From: an uncultured Spirochaetota bacterium | GTDB taxonomy: Bacteria > Spirochaetota > Brevinematia > Brevinematales > JAOACQ01 | Length of the DNA: 64,000 nt | NCBI GenBank assembly: GCA_963783575.1 | Contig: CAWAOD010000004.1 | Coordinates: 33,881 to 97,880 of the forward strand | Direction: 5' to 3' | In this document: positions 3,618-63,846 of the stretch, in pieces | Layout: every line of letters starts with the position of its first letter | How positions within the stretch are numbered: the stretch's first letter is position 1 | Notes under the pieces: generated by a model | What the model saw: the letters and a program-made list of their open reading frames with translations, nothing else | Database searches by the model: none | What the model was told of the DNA's origin: nothing | Program-made: the position numbers and the translations under genes

Positions 3618-3760
3618 TATAATTAAATATTATGTGATTGAGGAACTATCATTAGGTGAGTGGAATAAATTTTAAAATGCCTTGTGCCGGTGCCTTCGAT
3701 ACAAAATTTTGCTAAAGCAAAATTTCACTCAGGCATCGGAGGCTGGCGATTGAATTGCTA

Positions 3761-4057
3761 CCCGCAGCATTAGCGCCATTTCTGATTTAGCTTTTATTTG
3801 GTTAAAAAGAAATCTCAATAGTAAAATTATTGTTATTCCTGTGAAATAAAAAAGTAAATGTTTAATTCATTTCACGGCAGGATGCCGTGACCGACGCATA
3901 AAGCCAGGGATGGCGACATAAGGAGGCTATTATAATTAGATTTCTTTAATTAAAAAACTTGAATAACAACACCTCGATACAGAAAGACAGCTTCACATGA
4001 AATGGCGTTAATGCGGAGGGGTGACTTTTCTTTTTGGTACTTTTTCTTTTGGTCAAT
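3761..4057 (+). repeat. Palindromic ~340-bp repeat element, copy A (interrupted by the IS; remainder at 5788-5831)
   Basis: It shares ordered blocks with copies at 61757-62048 and 57855-58349 (CCCGCAGCATTAGCGCCATTTCTGAT ... TTGTTATTCC ... AATAACAACAC ... CACATGAAATGGCG..ATGCGGAGGGG). The outer and inner blocks are mutually reverse-complementary. Confidence 0.7.
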
Positions 4058-5783
4058 TTGTCTGTCGAAAAATCCGAAAATATGATATAATAGTTAGTTG
4101 CAAAATTAAAGAGGGGAAAGACAATGGCGAGATATAAGAGAGGAAATCTAGACCAGGGAGAATTGTTAGCCATCAATTTGCAGGAACAATTCGATGAATA
4201 CAGCCGTGAAGTCCTTCTAAAAAAGTTTGTGGCGAAATACATTGATATACAAAGGTTTGATAAATATTATTCCAATGATGAAACAGGGCGGAAAGGGAAA
4301 CATCCTCAAGATGTTATATCTGCGATTCTCTATGGTTATTTGCAAGGAATCCATTCCAGCCGCAAGGTAGAAAATCTTCTCAGAACCCACATAGGATTTA
4401 TGTATGTATCAAACCGTCTTAGCATAGATCATTCAAAGCTTTGCGATTTTAAAATCCAGTTTGATGATGAAATTACAAATCTGTTTGCGACAATTCTTTT
4501 TTTATTAAATAACATAGGAGAGATTGATTGGGATGTAGTTGTGGGGGACGGAACGAAAATCAAAGCCAATGCATCAAAGTCAAAGACGATGACCGGGGAA
4601 AGAGCCGACAAAGTGATGAGAACTTACCGCAAAATGGCAACCAAAGTAGTTAAAAGGAGTTTGGAGACGGATGAGAAACTAAATCGTGGTGAATTGGAAG
4701 AAGAAAAGTATATGGCTGAAAAAAAGTGTATAGAACGTCAGGAAAAGCTTTACAACAGAGTGATGGAACAGGTGGAAGTTTATCAAAAGATGCTTGAAGA
4801 AGAAAGATTAAAAGAAGGAGACAAAACCATTACAGGTAAAGATCATTATAATTTAACCGATCCTGACAGCTCTCTTACATTGGGACCTGACAAGAGCGGA
4901 TATATTCAGGGATATAATATAAGAATGATGATCAGTAACAATGACATAATACTAAGCTGTGAAAACGATAAATTGAATGAGAAATACAGTGCGAAACCCA
5001 TGATCGAGGAAGTGGAAAAGCTTAAAGAGGAATTGGGGGTAAAGCAGGAAAGTAAGTACCTGCTGGATTCGGGATTTCAAAATATGACGGACATTCTGGA
5101 AATGGAAGAAAAAGGATTGGATTGCTATATTGATGTAAAAGAGAGAGATTTTGGGAAAGAGGTACAAAAGAGAAAGAATTTTGAAATCATAAAAGGTGAT
5201 AACAGAGAGTATCGGTTAAAGTGTTGTGGTGGATTAAAAACAAAAGGATACATTGATGATAAAAGAGGCAAAATCCACTTTTTCTTTAACCGATCTCAAT
5301 GTGAAGGATGCAATAAATATCAGGAATGTTACTCAAGGATCAATCCAAAAAGAAATCAAAAGACTGTAAATTTCAATCTGTTTGAGTTAGAGAACAGAAA
5401 GGAAATCGACAGTTATCTGAATAAATTGAGAAGCGATGAAGGACAAAAGATATACAGCAAGAGAATTGGAAAGGAACACAATTTTGCCAACCTTAAAACA
5501 CAGAAAGATTTTTCTCAAACCTATTATCGTGGAAAAGAAAAAGTAGAAATGGACTGGCTCTGGAATTCCACATCACATAATTTGGGAAAATATTTTCAGG
5601 CAGTAATATGTAAAGGATTGAGTATATGAGGATGATATAAAATGGTACAGGAGTGTAATTATGTAATTTAAGCTATAATAAATTGTATATGAGATTAATT
5701 TTCGGATATCCTAGAAATCAAATGTGATATCCGAATGTTATAGAAAATCGCTTTTTCTCTTTTTATAGTTTTTCGACAGACAA
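4058..5783 (+). mobile_element. IS element (IS1182/IS5-superfamily), copy 1, 1726 bp
   Basis: The 15-bp terminal inverted repeats TTGTCTGTCGAAAAA lie at 4058-4072 and, as reverse complement, at 5769-5783. They are flanked by the 4-bp direct repeat CAAT (4054-4057 and 5784-5787). A near-identical copy lies at 62049-63774. Confidence 0.9.
4124..5629 (+). CDS. DDE transposase, IS1182/IS5-like
   Basis: 501 aa. It has an N-terminal DUF772/InsH-like motif (ILYGYLQGIHSSRKVENLL...IDHSKLCDF). The catalytic-type motifs are VVGDGTKIKANAS, YLLDSGFQN and GKEHNFANLK...YYRGKEKV. Confidence 0.9.
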   Translation: MARYKRGNLDQGELLAINLQEQFDEYSREVLLKKFVAKYIDIQRFDKYYSNDETGRKGKHPQDVISAILYGYLQGIHSSRKVENLLRTHIGFMYVSNRLSIDHSKLCDFKIQFDDEITNLFATILFLLNNIGEIDWDVVVGDGTKIKANASKSKTMTGERADKVMRTYRKMATKVVKRSLETDEKLNRGELEEEKYMAEKKCIERQEKLYNRVMEQVEVYQKMLEEERLKEGDKTITGKDHYNLTDPDSSLTLGPDKSGYIQGYNIRMMISNNDIILSCENDKLNEKYSAKPMIEEVEKLKEELGVKQESKYLLDSGFQNMTDILEMEEKGLDCYIDVKERDFGKEVQKRKNFEIIKGDNREYRLKCCGGLKTKGYIDDKRGKIHFFFNRSQCEGCNKYQECYSRINPKRNQKTVNFNLFELENRKEIDSYLNKLRSDEGQKIYSKRIGKEHNFANLKTQKDFSQTYYRGKEKVEMDWLWNSTSHNLGKYFQAVICKGLSI

Positions 5784-5937
5784 CAATCAAAAGAAAAAGT
5801 ACGAAAGCTACTTTGCCGCGGCTCTGCGGCATTAAAAATTTATTTTTGACAATTTTAATGTGCTATAATAAACTTCCGGTGTTTAGATCAATAGTCCGGA
5901 AAAAATAATAATTTATTTTTTATTAAGGAGAAAATAA

Positions 5938-31343: not shown

Positions 31344-33428
31344 TTATTTCTTATATCTTTTTAATATTTTTTTAAATTCATCCCTGTTTTTGTATTTTTC
31401 ATAAACCATATCCGTTTCTAAAAAATTCTCAATAGGATAGCCTTTCTTTAATGCTGTTTCAATATTCTTATAAAATCCCTTATCATTATCCATATCACCG
31501 TATATTTCCGCGAGAGAGCCGTAAGCATAAGAGTAATCCGGGTTAAATTCGATCGCTTTCTGCACATCAGCAATTGCGAGGTCAAACTTTTTTATTGATC
31601 GATAAACATTCCCACGGTTATTATATACTAATGAATAATTAGGGTTCAACTCGATTGCTTTATTATAGTCGTTAATTGCTTTTCCATATTCTTTTTGATA
31701 GTAATAAGCAACCCCTCGGCTATTATAGGCATCCGAATAATTAGGATTCAGTTCGATTGCTTTACTATAGTCATTTATAGCTTTTTTATATTCCTTTTGA
31801 TCTGAATAAACAAGCCCGCGATTATGATAGGCTAATAATAAATCCGGATTTAGTTGGATCGCTCTGTTATAATCATTTATAGCTTTTTCATATTCCTTTT
31901 GATCGTAATATGCAACCCCGCGATTATGATAGGCCTCCGAATAATCCGGTTTCAATCCGATTGCATTATTATAATCATTTATTGCTTTTTCGTAATCAAT
32001 TTGAGCGGAATAAACAAGTCCGCGATTATGATAGGCTAAAGAATAAGCCGGATTCAGTTCGATAGCTTTATTATAATCGTTTATTGCTTTTTCATATTCC
32101 TTTTGATCGTAATATGCAACCCCGCGGTTATTATAGGCATCCGAATAATCCGGTTTCAGTTCGATTGCTTTACTATACCATTCGATTATTTCTTTAGGAT
32201 TTTTGCTGTCATAAGCCTTATTAAACCAATCAAGGGCGGTAAGATAACTATTGAATTTATTTTTATCATGATCTGAAATGACGGGTGAAGACTGAACGGT
32301 TGCTTTATTGAAATTATCAATATACCTTTTTGTTTTTTCCTCAAATTGCTTTGCTTCTTCGGATAATTTTTCAGTATCACACTGGTATTTATTCCATAAT
32401 TTGAAAATAAAAGTATCGAAATTCTCTATTTTTACAATAAAACTATTTTTTGTATTGTTGATCAGGTTTACAACACGCCAGTTCATGGAATTGATATCCA
32501 TAGCGCACCAGTATAAACAGAAATGCCGGTCCTTTTTCTTTTTTTCCAGGATATTCATAATAGAATAATCCGAACCGTTATACCCGATGACAACAAGCCC
32601 CAGTTTTTCCAGGGCTTCGTTAAATTTGGTTTCCATATTTTTATCCAGGGACTGCGTTTCATTATTTATATTTTTGATGTTTTCAAATAAATAATCGCCG
32701 TGGAGCTTGATTATATTCGGTTTGTCATCCTCGATATTGATGTATTTCGCGGTCTCATTATGGGAATAGACCCGGGGTTTTTTATGCGTATAGAACAAAA
32801 GGGCGTCATTTATCAGATCGTCAAAATTGGTCGTAAAAATATTTTTCACAACGCCCTTTTTAACGATATTCGCGAATAGAATGTAAGCTCCCTGGGGTTC
32901 TTTCTTTTCTATCAGCCGCTCGATAAACTTCTGCCGCTCCCTTTCATCCTCTGAGTATTCCTCGAACCAGAAACCGTAAAGACTATCCGAATAAATATGA
33001 TCTTTTAAATCATCCCATAATTTTTGATTGTCCGAATATTCATTTTTGATCGATTCGGGAATTTTATTTATATAACTGATTTTATCTTCTTCCATTTTTG
33101 CTTTAAAGTGATCTTCTTTTTCATTAATAAATTTTTCATAATCTTTTTGGCGGGAATCATCTTTCTGAAGGTAAGTGTCGATTAATTTTATTATTTCAGA
33201 TATACTATCCGCTTCATTGCTGTTTAAGTCCGTCCTGCTTTTCGCGAAACAGTTCTTTTTTATTATTTCTATAATCCCCCCGCCGGATGGAATTTCCGAA
33301 CTGATTGAAGAACCTGCTCCTAAAAATAGCGAGAATTTCGAGAGATTTTTTTCGATTTTTATACCCATTTCATTCAGCAAGACAGCTTCATCTTTAATTT
33401 TTTCATTATTGATTTCAAATTTTTTCAT
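31344..33428 (-). CDS. SIR2-like (SIR2_2-type) domain protein fused to a TPR array
   Basis: 694 aa. N-terminal motifs are FSLFLGAGSSISSEIPSG, IFTTNFDDLINDA, IIKLHGD and VVIGYNGSDYSI. The C-terminal ~270 aa are at least eight 34-aa TPRs (AYNNRGVAYYDQKEYEKAINDYNKAIELNP...). Confidence 0.8.
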   Translation of the reverse strand: MKKFEINNEKIKDEAVLLNEMGIKIEKNLSKFSLFLGAGSSISSEIPSGGGIIEIIKKNCFAKSRTDLNSNEADSISEIIKLIDTYLQKDDSRQKDYEKFINEKEDHFKAKMEEDKISYINKIPESIKNEYSDNQKLWDDLKDHIYSDSLYGFWFEEYSEDERERQKFIERLIEKKEPQGAYILFANIVKKGVVKNIFTTNFDDLINDALLFYTHKKPRVYSHNETAKYINIEDDKPNIIKLHGDYLFENIKNINNETQSLDKNMETKFNEALEKLGLVVIGYNGSDYSIMNILEKKKKDRHFCLYWCAMDINSMNWRVVNLINNTKNSFIVKIENFDTFIFKLWNKYQCDTEKLSEEAKQFEEKTKRYIDNFNKATVQSSPVISDHDKNKFNSYLTALDWFNKAYDSKNPKEIIEWYSKAIELKPDYSDAYNNRGVAYYDQKEYEKAINDYNKAIELNPAYSLAYHNRGLVYSAQIDYEKAINDYNNAIGLKPDYSEAYHNRGVAYYDQKEYEKAINDYNRAIQLNPDLLLAYHNRGLVYSDQKEYKKAINDYSKAIELNPNYSDAYNSRGVAYYYQKEYGKAINDYNKAIELNPNYSLVYNNRGNVYRSIKKFDLAIADVQKAIEFNPDYSYAYGSLAEIYGDMDNDKGFYKNIETALKKGYPIENFLETDMVYEKYKNRDEFKKILKRYKK

Positions 33429-36527: not shown

Positions 36528-38414
36528 ATGAAATTAGAAATTTTTGTAGAAACATTCCTTTGTATAATAATTTTATTATCGATATTGTCATGCGGACACA
36601 AGCCGGCTGTTAAAGGGGAAAATCCCATATCAGAGGAAAAATCAAATATTGAGACAAATGTGGGATATCCTGTATCGGAAGAATATTTAAATATTGAAAC
36701 AAACAATATCTTCACTACCGAAGAAACCGTTGTACTCTCGAATAAAACTAAGGTATTGATACTTCCGTTTGACAACAGGTCGGATCAGTCGAAGTATCCA
36801 AACGCTAAAATAGTAAATACTATTATAATGAGTGAATTATACGCATTTCTATACATCGTGCCTTCTTTCGACGTTCCTGAAAAAACTGAACTGGCCGCTC
36901 TGAATTCCGAATTTTTAAACCGGAAAGATATAAAACCGCAGGATATTTACAGTAACTATCAGGCGGATATTATTATTTTCGGTAATTATGGCCTAAATGG
37001 CAGTAAAACAGATCCAACGGCGCAAATACGGCTTAATATATGGAATAAAGCGTCTGGAAAGATTGATACTCATGAATATAATACACCCATTGACGCAGAT
37101 ATTTTTGACGCAATAGATGCTATGCTCTCCCAGATTATCAGTTTAACGCTTAATGAAGAAGTTAAAATCTCATATCTCAATATCGGAAATTTCAAAATAG
37201 GAAACGGATCTTATTCACTTACGATCAATAATAAACCAGCGGCAAAAATAACAAATGATAATTTTTCACTGAATCTTAAAATATTACCGAATGCGATTTA
37301 TTCGATAAGGTTAAGAAATACCGCGGATAACAAAAATGTTTTAAACAATCAGGTTATGTTAAAGCCCGGTGAAACGACAAATATTAGTTATACCGCGGCT
37401 TTCGCTGAAGATAACTTGTATGACGTAGTTACAAACGGCAATATAGCGTTTATCAAATATTACCGCGATGATATTAACAAGCCCCTTGATATTAATGGCA
37501 ACACGGCTTTGATTTTAGCGATCTATGGCGGAGATATGAACATGATTAAAGTCTTGATCGAGGCTAAGGCCGATGTCAACACAGCAGACAAAGATGGCGT
37601 AACAGCTTTGATGTGGGCGGCCATTAAAAGCCGATCGGATGCGGTCAAAGCATTGATCGAAGCTAAAGCCGGCCTCAACGCCGCTGATAAAGACGGCTGG
37701 ACGGCTTTGATGTGGGCGGCTAGAAAATACAATGAGAGTGTGATGGAAGCATTAATCGAAGCTAAAGCCGACCTCAACGCTATAGATATAAACGGATATA
37801 CGGCTTTATCATATGCGGCCAGGGATGGCGATACTAATGTGGTTAAAATATTGATTGAGGCAAAGGCCGATCTCAACACCTTGACTAAAAATAATGAAAC
37901 GGCTTTGATGCTTGCCGCCCAAAATGGGCATACTGATGTAGTTAAAGCATTGATCGAGGCAATGGCTGATCTAAACAAGGGGGATAATAATGGCTGGACG
38001 GCTTTGATGTGGGCAGCCCAAAATAGGCACACAGATATAGTCAAAGCATTGATCGAAGCAAAGACCGATGTTAACAAAGAGGATAATAATGGCTGGACGG
38101 TTTTGATGTATTCGGCTAATTCCACTATCACAGGACTTTTAAGAGCAGCCGGGGCGAAACAGACCATATTCGGTGCTGCTGCAATAGGTGATATAGATTT
38201 TATCAAAAATTACTCGGGAGATGTTAATTCTGTGAATAAAAACGGCATTACGGCTTTGATGTGGGCCACCCAAAACGGTCATACGGAAGCGGTTAAAAAA
38301 TTGATTGCGGCCGGTGCCAATGTTAATGCTGTTGATTCAAAGGGAGATACGGCTTTGTCGCTTACTAAAGATGCCTCCATCATCAATCTTTTAAAAAAGG
38401 CTGGAGCGAAGTAA
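36528..38414 (+). CDS. Lipoprotein with a CsgG/LpoB-like N-terminal domain and about 9 ankyrin repeats
   Basis: Lipobox LSILSCG. The N-terminal region reads KVLILPFDNRSD...ADIIIFGNYG...IRLNIWNKASGKI. The C-terminus has repeated GxTALMWAA...VKALIEAKADLN 33-aa units. Confidence 0.85.
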   Translation: MKLEIFVETFLCIIILLSILSCGHKPAVKGENPISEEKSNIETNVGYPVSEEYLNIETNNIFTTEETVVLSNKTKVLILPFDNRSDQSKYPNAKIVNTIIMSELYAFLYIVPSFDVPEKTELAALNSEFLNRKDIKPQDIYSNYQADIIIFGNYGLNGSKTDPTAQIRLNIWNKASGKIDTHEYNTPIDADIFDAIDAMLSQIISLTLNEEVKISYLNIGNFKIGNGSYSLTINNKPAAKITNDNFSLNLKILPNAIYSIRLRNTADNKNVLNNQVMLKPGETTNISYTAAFAEDNLYDVVTNGNIAFIKYYRDDINKPLDINGNTALILAIYGGDMNMIKVLIEAKADVNTADKDGVTALMWAAIKSRSDAVKALIEAKAGLNAADKDGWTALMWAARKYNESVMEALIEAKADLNAIDINGYTALSYAARDGDTNVVKILIEAKADLNTLTKNNETALMLAAQNGHTDVVKALIEAMADLNKGDNNGWTALMWAAQNRHTDIVKALIEAKTDVNKEDNNGWTVLMYSANSTITGLLRAAGAKQTIFGAAAIGDIDFIKNYSGDVNSVNKNGITALMWATQNGHTEAVKKLIAAGANVNAVDSKGDTALSLTKDASIINLLKKAGAK

Positions 38415-39629: not shown

Positions 39630-40928
39630 ATGAAAATGAATGTTCTTAAACTGCCCGCTGTTCTGCCGGATGGTAAACCCGGGGCAATTTATCCTGTTCT
39701 CCTGAGCGATAACGGCGAATCGATTCTTGTGGATGCCGGGTTTCCCGGCCAGCTTAAACAGTTTAAGGATGCTTTCAAGGTGGCCGGAATCGGCTGGAAT
39801 TCATTAAAAACTATAATTATTACCCATCATGATATCGATCATATCGGCAGCCTGCCCGATATTATCCTGGATTCGCCTGCTAAAATCGAAGTGATTTCAT
39901 CTGAACTGGAAAAACCTTATATCCGGAAGGATGTTGTTTCATATAAAGCGGAACTTCTTAAAAAACATCTTAAGACCATTCCCGAAGATCAAAAAGTATC
40001 GGTACGTTCCATGCTGGATAATTTCACCAGGATGTCAGGGGGACCGGGCACAGATGTTGCCCGTGTGCTGAAAGATGGAGAAGAGCTTCCATTCTGCGGC
40101 GGCATCACTGTTATTTATACACCGGGGCATACTCCCGGGCACATAAGCCTGTATTTAAAAGGGTTCAAAACCCTTATTTCCGGCGACGCGTTGTCTACAG
40201 ACGGTGAATCGCTCTTTATTATGCCTTTTCCCGATTTTTTACAGGATAATGAAACTGCCCGGAAATCGATCCGGAAGCTGGCCAATTACGATATTAAAAC
40301 TGTAGTCTGCTACCATGGAGGAATTTGCGGGAACCAGGTTAACAGGAAAATAGCGGTTATGTCCGGGAAAGAAATACCTGAGGATAATTCAATGGTAAGA
40401 GTTTTCCAAACCTTGGCGGAGTATAATCAATCGGCAAATATAGAGCTGTTGAACCGCCTTGAAAAACTGCCCGGGGAACAGTTGAAGCTGGATACCGGCG
40501 CTTATTATACCTCAATTTATGAAGTCCTCAATCATATACTTATGAATAGCGACACGCTTTTCCTCAAGCTTTACAGCGATCTTTTTCCGGGCGATCCGGC
40601 GCTGTCAGGGAATATTCTCACCGGTCTGGATGAGGAGAAATACAAGGAGCTTATGGAAAAGCTTGAACTGGATTACAAAAAGATTTTTGTTTACCGGAAG
40701 GAAACTGATGGTTTGATCCGCAGGTTTATGGACAAATTAACACCGGAATACCTCTCTTCCAGCGTTCCGCTTTACCAAAATGCCGAGGGAGAAACGGTAA
40801 GCGGAGAACTCTGGAAAACGTTGTTGAAGCTTTTCGATCACCAGACATACCACCGAGGCGAGATCGCTGTTTTCCTTGACCGGATGGGTATTGAAAACGA
40901 TACTTATTCGGCAGGATGGGTTCACTGA
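39630..40928 (+). CDS. Metallo-beta-lactamase-fold hydrolase fused to a DinB-like domain
   Basis: The MBL motif is ITHHDIDHIG, with a later TPGHTPGH. The C-terminal DinB-like region reads HILMN...HQTYHRGEIAVFLDRMG. The last two codons and the stop are supplied by a MITE. Confidence 0.8.
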   Translation: MKMNVLKLPAVLPDGKPGAIYPVLLSDNGESILVDAGFPGQLKQFKDAFKVAGIGWNSLKTIIITHHDIDHIGSLPDIILDSPAKIEVISSELEKPYIRKDVVSYKAELLKKHLKTIPEDQKVSVRSMLDNFTRMSGGPGTDVARVLKDGEELPFCGGITVIYTPGHTPGHISLYLKGFKTLISGDALSTDGESLFIMPFPDFLQDNETARKSIRKLANYDIKTVVCYHGGICGNQVNRKIAVMSGKEIPEDNSMVRVFQTLAEYNQSANIELLNRLEKLPGEQLKLDTGAYYTSIYEVLNHILMNSDTLFLKLYSDLFPGDPALSGNILTGLDEEKYKELMEKLELDYKKIFVYRKETDGLIRRFMDKLTPEYLSSSVPLYQNAEGETVSGELWKTLLKLFDHQTYHRGEIAVFLDRMGIENDTYSAGWVH

Positions 40929-41067
40929 AAAAAGAGTTAAAATTTGAAAACTATAACCAACCGTTTCTAATTGCATTTATAACTCATTGTTATAAAGTAG
41001 GATATGACACCAATAAAATACTGTTTATTAAACATTTTAAGATTTATGCTGATTTTCAGTGAACCCG
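40918..41067 (+). mobile_element. MITE (~148 bp), copy a
   Basis: Terminal inverted repeats are GGGTTCACTGAAAA / TTTTCAGTGAACCC. The direct repeat GGATGGG lies at 40914-40920 and 41068-74 (TIR/TSD boundary ambiguous). A second copy, with about 9 mismatches by eye, lies inverted at 58075-58225. Confidence 0.8.
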
Positions 41068-53502: not shown

Positions 53503-53603
53503 CATTTATATCGAAAAAAAATCCGGTTTTATTTTAATATTTTAAATTCCGATAATAAATTGACATAATTAATAAATAGTAGCAAAATATCATTGTAATT
53601 ATA

Positions 53604-54096
53604 AAGCAGGCTGGAAAAACGCCTTTCACTATTTTGTTGCGCTGATCTATGATGCTGGCAAAATGGTGAGGGGAGGAAAGTCCGGGCATCAAAAAGCATC
53701 GGGCCGGTTAATAGCCGGGCAGTAAATCTGCCTCCGTAAGCGGCAGGAAATGCTGACGGATAGCGCCACAGAAAACAAACTGCCCCTTACCATTTTATTA
53801 GCTTCACCTTTGTAAGCTCACAAAGTGGTAAGGGGTGAGGGTGAAAAGGCGGTGTAAGAGACCACCGCGGAACGCATAAGCGGACCGGCAAGGCAAGCCC
53901 CCCGTGATGCAAGGCTGAATAGGCATTCCATACTACCGCTTGTAGTAATCCATGGATAAGAATGCGGGTAAGCCGCTGGATATGTTTTATAAAAAACATA
54001 CAAGATGGATGTTTTTCGTCCTTTGATTTTTTGCCAATTTCTTTTAATTAGAGTGACAGAAGTCAAGGAAACAGGACCCGGCTTACAGGCCTGCCT
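53604..54096 (+). ncRNA. rnpB: RNase P RNA (bacterial type A), unusually long
   Basis: Universally conserved segments are present: GAGGAAAGTCCGGGC (about 53672-53686), GGTAAGGGGTGAGGGTGAAAAGGCGGTGTAAGAGACCACCGC, GCAAGGCTGAATAGG and ACAGGACCCGGCTTA (54071-54085). P1 pairing of GCAGGC (53606-53611) with GCCTGC (54089-54094) sets the ends. Confidence 0.85.
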
Positions 54097-54154
54097 TATT
54101 TTCTAAATTAATGTTTCCTGTTGCTTCGGGCTAAGGCTCTTAAGAAGGTGAAAA

Positions 54155-57854: not shown

Positions 57855-58349
57855 TGTTTCCCTTTTGGCAAAAGGGAGAAAGCTCTTCCTTTCTTTCCTG
57901 CACAGCCAGGAAAGAAAGGAACCAAAGAAAGGAGCTGCCCCTTCGCATTAGCGCCATTTCATGTAAAGAAATTGTTTTATTCGGAAGTGTTGTTATTCAG
58001 GTTTTATTAAAAGCTCTATTTTTATTAAAGAGCCTCACTATGCAGTCCTGCTGCGTTCGGGTCGCAGCCGTCCTTGGGTTCACTGAAAATCAGCATAAAT
58101 CTTAAAATATTTAATAAACAGTATTTCATTAGTGTCATATCCTGTTTTATAACAATGAGTTATAAAAGCAATTAGAAAAGGTTGGTTATAGTTTTCAAAT
58201 TTTAACTCATTTTTCAGTGAACCCATCCTTGGCCGCGAAATATTATTGATTTGATTATTTTCTAAGGGGAATAACAACGTTTTTTATATTAAGATTCTTT
58301 TTTTACCATACAAAAATTCAATCAGAAATGGCGCTCATGCTGCGGGGGG
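57855..58349 (-). repeat. Palindromic ~340-bp repeat element, copy C (IS-free, carrying a nested MITE)
   Basis: Its reverse complement carries all blocks of copies A and B. The intact terminal hairpin is TTCCTTTCTTTCCTG (57886-57900), loop CACAGC, then CAGGAAAGAAAGGAA (57907-57921). Confidence 0.7.
58075..58225 (-). mobile_element. MITE (~148 bp), copy b, inserted in the central block of repeat copy C
   Basis: It has the same TIRs as copy a. It is flanked by the direct repeat TCCTTGG (58071-58077 and 58226-58232). The predicted 65-aa ORF 58080-58277 is internal to the element. Confidence 0.8.
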
Positions 58350-58680
58350 CGATTTAGCAGGTTGCGGTCACTGAGTAGTGGCATGTTAAAAATGGTCACT
58401 TCGATTTGCGGCAAAGCCGCTACTCAGTGATTAGACACATATCGAAGTGACTGTCATGACGATTGCTTTTAAAAGTTTCATACATCAATTTTAATAAATT
58501 GTATATTTTACCCTGCCTGAAAAATTCGTTAGGTGTATAATTAAGGAAATGATTGAAGGTTGACGGAAGAGGAGTTTAAGGTGGTGGAGAGTGATAACTA
58601 ATAAATAAAAGTATACGAAAAACTAGATTGTTTCCTATGAACTGTATTTTGTTTATTATAATTGTTGAGGAATAAAATAT

Positions 58681-61451: not shown

Positions 61452-61756
61452 TACTTTTGAACAAATATGGTATTCAACTTAAAGTATCCCGAGAGGAACA
61501 CCACCATACCCGATAGAAAGTCAAAAATAGGAAAACAATGATTGCGACTCTGAAAGCTAAACTTTTGCTGTCTAAAATTATACTTTGCCCCCAATTTGCT
61601 CCCTCATCGCTCGCCGAATCAAAGATTCGCCGGCCTTTTAAACTTCATAAAAAGACTTCACGATTACTTAGTATGAATATTAAAAAATATCAATCTACTT
61701 TTTTGAAAAGGTTTTTCCATCATCTTAAGATTAAAAAATCATATTGCTTAATCGCT

Positions 61757-62048
61757 CCCCGCAGCAGGATCGCCATTTCTGATTAAGCTTTAGTGTGGTC
61801 TTAAGCGAAGTCGGTAATAAAATCGTTGTTATTCCTGTTTAATATTGACAATACAAGCTAGAGGGTTTCTGCCTGGACGGCAGAAACCGACGAATCAGTC
61901 CAAGGATGGACTGTTGAGTCGGCTGTTACTAAAAGATATCTTTTACCAAATACCAATAACAACACCTAGATATTTACAGACCTCTTCACATGAAATGGCG
62001 CTCATGCGAAGGGGCGATTCTTTCTCTGGTTACTCTCTTTCTCATCAC
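61757..62048 (+). repeat. Palindromic ~340-bp repeat element, copy B (interrupted by the IS; remainder at 63779-63822)
   Basis: It has the same ordered blocks as copy A. The terminal hairpin arms GTTACTCTCTTTCTCA / TGAGAAAGAGAGTAAC are split by the IS. Confidence 0.7.
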
Positions 62049-63774
62049 TTGTCTGTCGAAAAACTATAAAAAGAGAAAAAGCGATTTTCTATAACATTCG
62101 GATATCACATTTGATTTCTAGGATATCCGAAAATTAATCTCATATACAATTTATTATAGCTTAAATTACATAATTACACTCCTGTACCATTTTATATCAT
62201 TCTCATATACTCAATCCTTTGCATATTACAGCCTGAAAATATTTTCCCACATTATGTGAAGTGGAATTCCAGAGCCAATCCATTTCTACTTTTTCTTTTC
62301 CACGATAATAGGTTTGAGAAAAATCTTTCTGCGTTTTAAGGTTGGCAAAATTGTGTTCCTTTCCAATTCTCTTGCTGTATATCTTTTGCCCTTCATCACT
62401 TCTCAATTTATTAAGATAACTGTCGATTTCCTTTCTGTTCTCTAACTCAAACAGATTGAAATTTACAGTCTTTTGGTTTCTGCTGGGATTTATGTTCGTA
62501 TAACATTCCTTATTATTTTCACATTCCTTACATTGTGATCGATTATAGAAAAAGTGGATTTTGCCTCTTTTATCATCAATGTATCCTTTGGTATTTAATC
62601 CACCACAGCACTTTAACCGATACTCTCTGTTATCACCTTTTATGATTTCAAAATTCTTTCTCTTTTGTACCTCTTTCCCAAAATCTCTCTCTTTTATATC
62701 AATATAGCAATCCAATCCTTTTTCTTCCATTTCCAGAATGTCTGTCATATTTTGAAATCCCGAATCCAGCAGGTACTTACTTTCCTGCTTTACCCCCAAT
62801 TCCTCTTTAAGCTTTTCCACTTCCTCAATCATGGGTTTCGCACTGTATTTCTCATTCAATTTATCGTTTTCACAGCTTAGTATTATGTCATTGTTACTGA
62901 TCATCATTCTTATATTATATCCCTGAATATATCCGCTCTTGTCAGGCCCCAATGTAAGAGAGCTGTCGGGATCGGTTAAATTATAATGATCTTTGCCTGT
63001 AATGGTTTTGTCTCCTTCTTTTAATCTTTCTTCTTCAAGCATCTTTTGATAAACTTCCACCTGTTCCATCACTCTGTTGTAAAGCTTTTCCTGACGTTCT
63101 ATACGCTTTTTTTCAGCCATATACTTTTCTTCTTCCAATTCACCACGATTTAGTTTCTCATCTGTCTCCAAACTCCTTTTAACTACTTTGGTTGCCATTT
63201 TGCGGTAAGTTCTCATCACTTTGTCGGCTCTTTCCCTGGTCATCGTCTTTGACTTTGATGCATTGGCTTTGATTTTCGTTCCGTCCCCCACAACTACATC
63301 CCAATCAATCTCTCCTATGTTATTTAATAAAAAAAGAATTGTCGCAAACAGATTTGTAATTTCGTCATCAAACTGGATTTTAAAATCGCAAAGCTTTGAA
63401 TGATCTATGCTAAGACGGTTTGATACATACATAAATCCTATGTGGGTTCTGAGAAGATTTTCTACCTTGCGGCTGGAATGGATTCCTTGCAAATAACCAT
63501 AGAGAATCGCAGATATAACATCTTGAGGATGTTTCCCTTTCCGCCCTGTTTCATCATTGGAATAATATTTATCAAACCTTTGTATATCAATGTATTTCGC
63601 CACAAACTTTTTTAGAAGGACTTCACGGCTGTATTCATCGAATTGTTCCTGCAAATTGATGGCTAACAATTCTCCCTGGTCTAGATTTCCTCTCTTATAT
63701 CTCGCCATTGTCTTTCCCCTCTTTAATTTTGCAACTAACTATTATATCATATTTTCGGATTTTTCGACAGACAA
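62049..63774 (-). mobile_element. IS element (IS1182/IS5-superfamily), copy 2, 1726 bp, inverted relative to copy 1
   Basis: It has the same 15-bp TIRs as copy 1. It is flanked by the 4-bp direct repeat TCAC (62045-62048 and 63775-63778). Confidence 0.9.
62203..63708 (-). CDS. DDE transposase, IS1182/IS5-like
   Basis: 501 aa, differing from the 4124-5629 product at about 15 positions. Confidence 0.9.
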   Translation of the reverse strand: MARYKRGNLDQGELLAINLQEQFDEYSREVLLKKFVAKYIDIQRFDKYYSNDETGRKGKHPQDVISAILYGYLQGIHSSRKVENLLRTHIGFMYVSNRLSIDHSKLCDFKIQFDDEITNLFATILFLLNNIGEIDWDVVVGDGTKIKANASKSKTMTRERADKVMRTYRKMATKVVKRSLETDEKLNRGELEEEKYMAEKKRIERQEKLYNRVMEQVEVYQKMLEEERLKEGDKTITGKDHYNLTDPDSSLTLGPDKSGYIQGYNIRMMISNNDIILSCENDKLNEKYSAKPMIEEVEKLKEELGVKQESKYLLDSGFQNMTDILEMEEKGLDCYIDIKERDFGKEVQKRKNFEIIKGDNREYRLKCCGGLNTKGYIDDKRGKIHFFYNRSQCKECENNKECYTNINPSRNQKTVNFNLFELENRKEIDSYLNKLRSDEGQKIYSKRIGKEHNFANLKTQKDFSQTYYRGKEKVEMDWLWNSTSHNVGKYFQAVICKGLSI

Positions 63775-63846
63775 TCACTGAGAAAGAGAGTAACAAAGCC
63801 CCATTGCCGTGGCTTTACGGCAAAATGCAATATAATAATTTTCCTC

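Follow-up and report, generated by a model that had tools for sequence, protein, structure and literature searches.

A divergent IS1182-family element inserted in the loops of purine/pyrimidine hairpins in a Spirochaetota genome

In the 64,000-nt stretch of contig CAWAOD010000004.1 analysed here (the window), which belongs to an uncultured Spirochaetota bacterium, two copies of an IS1182-like insertion sequence (IS) interrupt the same point of a repeated palindrome. This arrangement raises the question of whether the IS selects such palindromes as targets and, if so, whether it reads the shape that they may adopt or the sequence of their arms. Both copies lie in the loop of a hairpin with a pyrimidine 5' arm and a purine 3' arm (a Y/R hairpin), and most resolved insertions of related elements also lie at hairpins. 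The two copies, their target-site duplications (TSDs) and their transposase open reading frames (ORFs) are placed as follows.

4058 to 5783, plus strand: IS copy 1, 1,726 bp, with perfect 15-bp terminal inverted repeats TTGTCTGTCGAAAAA
62049 to 63774, minus strand: IS copy 2, 1,726 bp, in opposite orientation to copy 1 and to its host element
4054 to 4057 (left) and 5784 to 5787 (right), strand not applicable: TSD CAAT of copy 1
62045 to 62048 (left) and 63775 to 63778 (right), strand not applicable: TSD TCAC of copy 2, which is the entire hairpin loop
4124 to 5629, plus strand: transposase ORF of copy 1, 501 aa, intact
62203 to 63708, minus strand: transposase ORF of copy 2, 501 aa, intact, 97% identical to that of copy 1

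The 15-mer TTGTCTGTCGAAAAA occurs four times in the window, as two inverted pairs (4058/5783 and 62049/63774), with about 0.3 occurrences expected by chance. The copies lie in opposite orientations and differ by 45 substitutions (97.4% identity). Excision of copy 1 with one CAAT restores the perfect hairpin GTACTTTTTCTTTTG-GTCAAT-CAAAAGAAAAAGTAC, and excision of copy 2 with one TCAC restores the perfect hairpin GTTACTCTCTTTCTCA-TCAC-TGAGAAAGAGAGTAAC; both copies thus interrupt the apical loop of perfect 15-16-bp hairpins. A third, uninterrupted hairpin of the same kind is also present in the window.

4037 to 4051, plus strand: pyrimidine-rich 5' arm (Y2) of hairpin A, GTACTTTTTCTTTTG, from hairpin search and folding
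5788 to 5802, plus strand: purine-rich 3' arm (R) of hairpin A, CAAAAGAAAAAGTAC, from hairpin search and folding
62029 to 62044, plus strand: Y2 arm of hairpin B, GTTACTCTCTTTCTCA, from hairpin search
63779 to 63794, plus strand: R arm of hairpin B, TGAGAAAGAGAGTAAC, from hairpin search
57886 to 57921, strand not applicable: hairpin C, the IS-free homologue TTCCTTTCTTTCCTG-CACAGC-CAGGAAAGAAAGGAA, a natural empty site, from hairpin search and folding

Hairpins A, B, and C align at one common position of an intergenic element of about 340 bp that is present in three copies.

3757 to 4057 and 5788 to 5830, plus strand: host element copy A, 344 nt in all, split by IS copy 1
61754 to 62048 and 63779 to 63823, plus strand: host element copy B, 340 nt in all, split by IS copy 2
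57860 to 58350, minus strand: host element copy C, with its Y/R hairpin free of the IS, 336 nt after removal of a nested 149-bp MITE-like element (MITE, miniature inverted-repeat transposable element)

The two window insertions are independent, because their TSDs, flanks, and orientation differ and the copies are 2.6% diverged. On these points a sequence-only reading of the locus holds: the restored sequences and the three-copy alignment confirm its claims that both IS copies occupy the loop of a perfect hairpin at the same position of the element, with restored loops GTCAAT and TCAC, the latter being wholly TSD; that 57886-57921 is the same hairpin unoccupied; and that the two insertions arose separately.

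A search of the window without the IS (60.5 kb) for perfect hairpins with stems of 10 bp or more gives nine. Three of them are Y/R hairpins, which are also the longest of the nine, and two of these three carry the IS; the other perfect, terminator-like hairpins are all unoccupied. By our own estimate, the chance that two independent insertions fall on the roughly 15 loop positions in 60.5 kb is about 1e-7. When folded as single strands, hairpins A-C have energies of -15 to -18 kcal/mol (z = -4.6 to -7).

Relatives gathered by protein search, on contigs from other assemblies, provided 13 further resolved sites, with transposases 35-84% identical to that of the window; together with the two window copies, whose window covers 64 kb of the host genome, they make up a set of 15 sites. 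A scan of genome contigs found one related metagenome-assembled genome (MAG), of an uncultured Spirochaetota, with four loci. A search for entries identical to the window transposase gave none. Sites of the relatives are given below, by transposase identity to the window copy.

L001 (79-84% group, Spirochaetota MAG): CCTACCTTCTTTCTG-[TACG]GC-CAGAAAGAAGGTAGG, TSD TACG, in the loop of a Y/R hairpin
L002 (79-84% group): TTACTTTCTTTCTG-[TTTG]GC-CAAAAAGAGAGTAA, TSD TTTG, with two stem mismatches
L005 (79-84% group): ...CTCTTTCTG[ATCG]TTCAGAAAGAG..., TSD ATCG, 18-bp stem
L004 (79-84% group): short Y/R palindrome TCTTTCTTTTG-CC-CAAAAGAAA, outside any copy of the 340-nt element
L003 (79-84% group): interrupted by the contig end, site incomplete
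L017 (46-47% group): TCCATTTCTTTTG-C[GTTG]CC-CAAAAGAAATGGA, TSD GTTG
L011 left with L016 right (46-47% group): paralogous site with loop C[TGTG]CC, TSD TGTG, rebuilt from two contigs
L013 (46-47% group): TTTCTTTTGT-G[ACGA]G-ACAAAAGAAA, TSD ACGA
L041 (46-47% group): GTTACTTTCTTGTT-[TTGC]-AAAAAGAAAGTAAC, TSD TTGC
L042 and L044 (35% relatives): TSD GGGG at the apex of C-run/G-run hairpins

At 11 of the 15 resolved sites the centre of the TSD is no more than 1 nt from the dyad of a Y/R hairpin; about 12 of 15 are at or near the dyad if L004, whose TSD is 2-3 nt off, is counted. Every resolved site has a 4-bp TSD and retains both hairpin arms where a hairpin is present. The IS lies in the loop of Y/R hairpins with stems of 14-18 bp in L001, L002, and L005; the stems in L017, L011/L016, L013, and L041 are 13-16 bp long and stand in a repeat context unlike that of the window. 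Nine A/T-rich sites have a flank whose asymmetry can be identified; the IS has the orientation of that flank in four of them and the opposite one in five. Left out of the site count were the 51% group (L006-L010) and the 46% relatives L038-L039, in which IS ends and TSDs are ambiguous. We are highly confident that the target is selected rather than met at random; the preference is real, symmetric, and common to the clade at about 35% identity and above, and what it follows is the Y/R palindrome itself, not the larger ~340-nt element.

Some surroundings of these sites are recorded here in their own right. In L011 (1-1344 on the minus strand, and 1930), a 47% relative, a 16S rRNA gene has the occupied Y/R hairpin about 585 bp upstream of its 5' end. 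In the flanks of L013, L017, and L041 the Y/R hairpin stands amid mosaic arrays of repeated hairpin modules that resemble bacterial interspersed mosaic elements (BIMEs), for example AAAGGTGnnnnCACCTTT units and CATCAGCCGAAGGCTGATAC. A search of sequencing runs found the window sequence only in freshwater-sediment and soil DNA metagenomes, at low coverage. In a freshwater-sediment metagenome the IS (window 4085-5783) has a word depth of about 16x, with divergent variants, versus 1-3x for its flanks, which suggests many IS copies or variants in the community. A scan of viral contigs gave no matches.

How the palindrome is recognised is a separate matter. The model that we favour, and regard as reasonably probable, is that the transpososome picks a short homopurine/homopyrimidine inverted repeat with a pyrimidine 5' arm, a 4-7-nt spacer, and a purine 3' arm. 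The two 3' ends of the IS would join target phosphates that lie on either side of the dyad, 4 bp from each other, and after repair the 4-bp duplication would make up all or part of the hairpin loop, with one arm kept on each side of the IS. Recognition of the repeat would be symmetric, because the IS is present in either orientation, and the repeat would most likely be read as an extruded hairpin or cruciform, as proposed for IS1272, a form of reading to which we give slightly better than even chances. The preferred repeats in the window genome appear to lie near the 3' end of the dispersed ~340-bp intergenic element, and this element would therefore collect IS copies.

Several observations weigh against this model. 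The A/T-rich stems share a (C/T)TTT(C/T)TG...CA(G/A)AAA(G/A) core beside the loop (YTTTCTG...CAGAAAR-like), and therefore symmetric reading of half-sites in B-form DNA fits equally well. Three resolved sites of relatives depart from the pattern.

L015 (46-47% group): weak hairpin, with a 7-9-bp stem and an 11-nt loop
L012 (47% relative): clean TSD GGTG at a site without a hairpin
L045 (35% group): ambiguous site

In a relative at 27% identity there is no palindrome. The five copies of the 51% group (L006-L010) have imperfect TSDs and no good hairpins; in three of the five the left flank is pyrimidine-rich and the right flank purine-rich. Metagenome contigs of the 47% group are often chimeric across the IS, and contigs from the low-coverage metagenome runs that hold the window sequence gave no empty-site allele joint and no RNA evidence. 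The sequence-only reading had argued for structure-directed targeting from two insertions in stems of different sequence. The strongly non-random choice stands and is repeated in relatives; the priority of structure over sequence does not follow, the stems being related, with shared pyrimidine/purine arms and the common core, so that half-sites fit as well. It had also named other copies of the IS in the genome at non-palindromic targets as evidence to the contrary, and relatives bear this out in part (L012 at 47%, and the 27% relative), with most sites at hairpins.

The rival that survives best is the B-form account, in which a transposase multimer binds two inverted YTTTCTG-like half-sites in B-form DNA and cuts between them, hairpin potential being a mere by-product; it is possible, and we lean away from it. 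The inner 6-7 bp of the A/T-rich targets are closely alike (CTTTTG, TTTCTG, TTCTGA, TTCTCA), the weak or non-hairpin sites L015, L012, L010, and L007 keep a T/C-rich left and an A/G-rich right flank, and the window's perfect hairpins of other composition remain unoccupied. The relatives at 35% identity, however, use C-run/G-run palindromes of very different sequence, which agrees with a shared structural or compositional cue, although a specificity peculiar to each transposase is possible; and IS1272 targets hairpins without a primary-sequence consensus (PMC4923244, PMC5678879).

The second rival turns on a further property of the target. Upstream of every A/T-rich target hairpin, across a 1-6-nt linker, lies a second pyrimidine tract (Y1) that is the mirror image of the 5' arm.

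4025 to 4035, plus strand: Y1 of copy A, CTTTTCTTTTT, which mirrors Y2 and has 10 positions in parallel, Hoogsteen-type match with the R arm
62018 to 62027, plus strand: Y1 of copy B, TTCTTTCTCT, with a 9-nt parallel match to the R arm
57924 to 57934, minus strand: Y1 of copy C, CTCCTTTCTTT (minus strand), with a 10-nt parallel match to the R arm

Eleven Y1 motifs were scored, those of the three window copies and of L001, L002, L004, L005, L008, L013, L017, and L041. All 11 give runs of 6-12 canonical T.A-T / C.G-C triples with the purine arm (shuffle p <=0.017 in nine of them), in none is the parallel match shorter than the antiparallel one while in nine it is strictly longer, and the Y1 sequence covaries with the stem across about six sequence classes. 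In sequence the motifs fit the ITxF/PIT pattern, which has Hoogsteen, pyrimidine, and purine tracts in register (each tract 6-15 nt long, each loop 1-6 nt, and no more than one mismatch); they correspond to a class IV intrastrand triplex on one strand and to class II on the opposite strand. When Y1 and Y2 were tried as a direct repeat instead, the mirror/parallel match was equal or better in 11/11, though by 1-2 nt only.

Two further observations concern motifs of this type. At about 1830-1890 of L008 there is an IS-free, perfect triplex-type motif, TTTTCTTTCTTT-AG-CGCGATATTTCTTTCTTTT-CG-AAAAGAAAGAAATATCGTG, with 12 potential triples, and a 51%-identical IS lies 45 bp downstream. G/C-rich motifs resembling BoxC/TMECO occur in L041 at about 390-430 and 1400-1440 and in the left flanks of L042 and L044 (GCCCTCACCCC...GCCCTCTCCT-AA-AGGAGAGG; CCCCCTAACCCCC-AAA-GGGGG).

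It is on this architecture that triplex-directed targeting would rest: the cue would be a motif prone to intrastrand triplex or H-DNA formation (mirror plus inverted repeat), and the IS would enter its distorted apex or junction. In its favour, every A/T-rich target has a mirroring Y1 with 6-12 consecutive triples, which changes together with the stem and whose parallel match is never the shorter; the G/C-rich sites read C5-N3-G5-N2-3-G5+, which is a motif of class II; L008 has a perfect motif, with 12 triples, that is unoccupied; Tn7 is drawn to Y.R.Y triplexes (PMC2886061); and intrastrand triplex motifs of bacteria have already been catalogued (PMC4666352). Against it, the orientation of the IS is independent of the Y1 side (4 vs 5), an argument against the reading of an asymmetric third strand; the tracts come close to self-symmetry, the mirror match beating the direct or antiparallel match by just 1-2 nt; C+.G-C triples require low pH; and the IS in L008 lies 45 bp from the perfect motif, not inside it. 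We consider this targeting unlikely. It is similarly improbable, in our judgement, that an IS1182-family clade (at least 35% identity; found in Spirochaetota-like bacteria of sediment and soil) evolved to read triplex- or H-DNA-prone motifs, the host element being an undescribed structured RNA/DNA element with a functional module that the IS disables. Were it so, target choice linked to triplexes would be seen for the first time in a natural insertion sequence, and the conserved Y1-Y2-loop-R module and two GGA-loop hairpins of the ~340-nt element would be functional, the IS disabling the element; a true triplex link would tie the natural targeting of transposons to non-B DNA and draw attention to a structured element, so far unannotated, of Spirochaetota-like bacteria.

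A third rival, random insertion with survival of neutral insertions only, the loops of a dispensable repeat being neutral, agrees with the intergenic position of all insertion sites. Single-nucleotide dyad precision at 11 of 15 sites in several genomes is beyond the reach of selection, however, and the IS is absent from most intergenic DNA of the window; we hold this account to be very improbable. That the IS and its flanking element were duplicated as one unit, as the presence of both copies within homologous elements might suggest and as the sequence-only reading had considered, is refuted with near certainty by the unlike TSDs (CAAT vs TCAC), the opposite orientation of the IS relative to the element, and flanks only about 75-80% identical versus 97.4% for the IS copies.

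The model of a selected Y/R palindrome, probably read as a hairpin or cruciform, leaves the host element itself to be described. Homologues occur in the related MAG, at L002 and L005. The 26-mer CATGAAATGGCGYTMATGCGRAGGGG, just upstream of the hairpins, occurs exactly three times in the window, with 0 expected. Common to the copies are a long closing helix (CCC-GCA-GCAnnAnCGCCATTTC paired with GAAATGGCGnTnATGC-GRA-GGGG) and a second helix with a compensatory change between genomes (TTGTTATTC/GAATAACAA vs TTGCATTATCC/GGATAATGCAA). The order of modules is also shared: two tandem GGA-loop hairpins, then Y1-Y2-loop-R, an AAAGC spacer, and a final hairpin; in copy A the 3' part (5788-5830) consists of the R arm, the AAAGC spacer, and the second hairpin GCCGCGGCTCTGCGGC. 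No Rfam 15 family was found on the element in the window, L002, or L005 at gathering and E-value thresholds. The strand asymmetry of folding energy and of G.U pairs, which bears on RNA versus DNA and on the choice of strand, is inconsistent; promoter and terminator scans around the three copies gave no consistent signal; and a metagenome scan with the conserved element motif AAATGGCGNNNATGCGNAGGGG returned 17 matches, all chance, in unrelated DNA. For annotation, interrupted copies of this ~340-nt intergenic element are to be expected in these genomes.

Each element copy has an adjacent pair of hairpins with GGA in the apical loop, at about 3875-3915 in A, about 61865-61920 in B, and 58230-58040 on the minus strand in C, and such a pair is also present in L002; examples are cacggcaGGAtgccgtg plus gccagGGAtggc, and cagtccaaGGAtggactg. 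These hairpins resemble CsrA/RsmA binding sites, and are putative sites at most. The idea of a CsrA sponge was rejected, the total GGA count not being enriched (4 vs 4.5 expected from shuffles), and the only lead left is the two hairpins that carry GGA in the loop. The MITE-like element of 149 bp is present in two inverted copies that are 95% identical, at 58076-58224 and 40918-41066, with 14-bp terminal inverted repeats GGGTTCACTGAAAA. The copy at 58076-58224 lies inside element copy C, in the loop of a conserved CCAAGGAYGG hairpin, with flanks AAGGAT/AAGGAC; a second mobile element therefore also enters a hairpin loop, at an RGGAT-like 5-bp target. The copy at 40918-41066 has flanks AGGAT/GGGAT and lies within a larger inverted repeat, CCTTGACCGGAT...ATCCGGTCAAGG.

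The family of the IS follows from its transposase. The ORF of copy 1 matched the Pfam domains DUF772 (PF05598), DDE_Tnp_1 (PF01609), and DDE_Tnp_1_6 (PF13751), all above gathering thresholds and in a single ORF. The NCBIfam IS1182 model NF033551 aligned at 4-486 of its 488 positions (E = 3e-65), with 220.9 bits, which is under its curated 270-bit cutoff, and the second-best NCBIfam family, IS5, reached only 25 bits. The annotated plasmid homologues are all named IS1182 family and are at most about 25% identical to the window transposase. Members of the IS1182 family are about 1.3-2 kb long and have terminal inverted repeats, and the 1,726-bp length and perfect 15-bp repeats found here agree with that range. 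Because of the Pfam domains, the full-length sub-cutoff match to NF033551, and the IS1182-named plasmid homologues, the element is classed by sequence as an uncatalogued, divergent IS1182-family insertion sequence with a predicted DDE transposase. A Cys-rich patch of 22 residues (388-409; C-x2-C-x5-C) holds ten of the 15 amino acid differences between the two copies, and about 22 of the 45 nucleotide differences are packed into the 70 nt at window 5286-5356 (copy 1 positions 1229-1299); judging from the sequence, this cluster may be a patch left by recombination, or a loop that evolves fast and possibly binds DNA. A sigma-70-like promoter of the transposase is predicted at window 4058-4086 (TTGTCT-17-TATGAT), with its -35 hexamer within the left inverted repeat.

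Elsewhere in the window, an RNase P RNA of bacterial class A at 53603-54101 on the plus strand (259 bits, with several large insertions versus the model) is the sole Rfam match. Tandem 102-nt coding repeats at 31500-32279 encode TPR repeats (Pfam) in the ORF at 31344-33428, and tandem 99-nt coding repeats at 37488-38311 belong to the repeat protein of the ORF at 36528-38414.

Among known systems, Tn7 offers one point of comparison. Its attraction to Y.R.Y triplex DNA was reportedly described by Rao, Miller and Craig in 2000. Like Tn7, which is attracted to such triplex DNA (PMC2886061), the window IS is a DDE-type transposon with target choice at a purine/pyrimidine sequence prone to non-B forms, the non-B form here being predicted from sequence; unlike the window IS, Tn7 inserts beside the triplex and not in a hairpin loop, and its triplex response is an experimental, TnsC-mediated side-pathway. 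PIT motifs, including BoxC/TMECO, consist of Hoogsteen, pyrimidine, and purine domains with short loops and are dispersed in intergenic DNA (Holder et al. 2015, PMC4666352; also Hoyne & Maher 2000). The window target likewise has three consecutive tracts with short loops in intergenic DNA; unlike TMECO, which is G/C-rich and about 37 nt long and for which the authors found no link to transposons or transposases (PMC4666352), it is A/T-rich, lies at the end of an element of 340 nt, and serves as the target of an IS.

Insertion into repetitive extragenic palindromes (REPs) and BIMEs is known for the IS3, IS110, IS4, IS256, and IS5 families; IS1397 and ISKpn1 (IS3 family) enter the palindromic units of BIMEs, and the transposase is held responsible for this specificity (PMC1525189). 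IS110-type elements work with a recombinase that is guided by RNA, in place of a DDE transposase and inverted repeats (PMC11208160). Like IS1397 and ISKpn1, the window IS enters a repeated extragenic palindrome; unlike them, it comes from another family and another host phylum and enters another type of palindrome. The host element is present in three copies in 64 kb, and its 340-nt unit, which has long-range helices, differs from a classical BIME.

The closest parallel lies within the family itself. IS1272 and its derivative TnSha1, in staphylococci, insert into hairpins without a primary-sequence consensus and in both orientations; these hairpins are often intergenic and are struck repeatedly, and IS1272, whose targets are often terminators, removes the stem-loop wholly or in part and leaves no TSD (PMC4923244, PMC5678879). 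The IS review of Siguier et al. (2015), as far as it is cited in these two papers, also has some IS1182 members targeting palindromes. Hairpin targeting is thus already documented for the IS1182 family, contrary to the sequence-only reading, which had thought palindrome targeting new for such elements (IS1272: PMC4923244, PMC5678879), and the window IS is a new example, not a new principle. Like IS1272 and TnSha1, it belongs to the IS1182 family and enters a hairpin-forming inverted repeat in both orientations; unlike IS1272, it targets specifically purine/pyrimidine palindromes without a U-tail and keeps both arms, with a 4-bp TSD in the loop and no replacement of the stem-loop. It resembles IS1272 in target choice and differs in joining geometry. 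New here are the member itself, an insertion that leaves the hairpin in place with a 4-bp TSD in its loop, and a choice of targets confined to purine/pyrimidine palindromes. The published model predicts loop-only duplication when attack falls at the loop (PMC5678879, Fig. 13, pathway c), which is the geometry observed in the window insertions. The 15 sites in several genomes, with a natural empty site, provide a well-resolved natural data set for the little-studied hairpin targeting of IS1182 elements, and they point to a second joining geometry, in which a 4-bp staggered attack across the dyad would keep the arms that IS1272 replaces.

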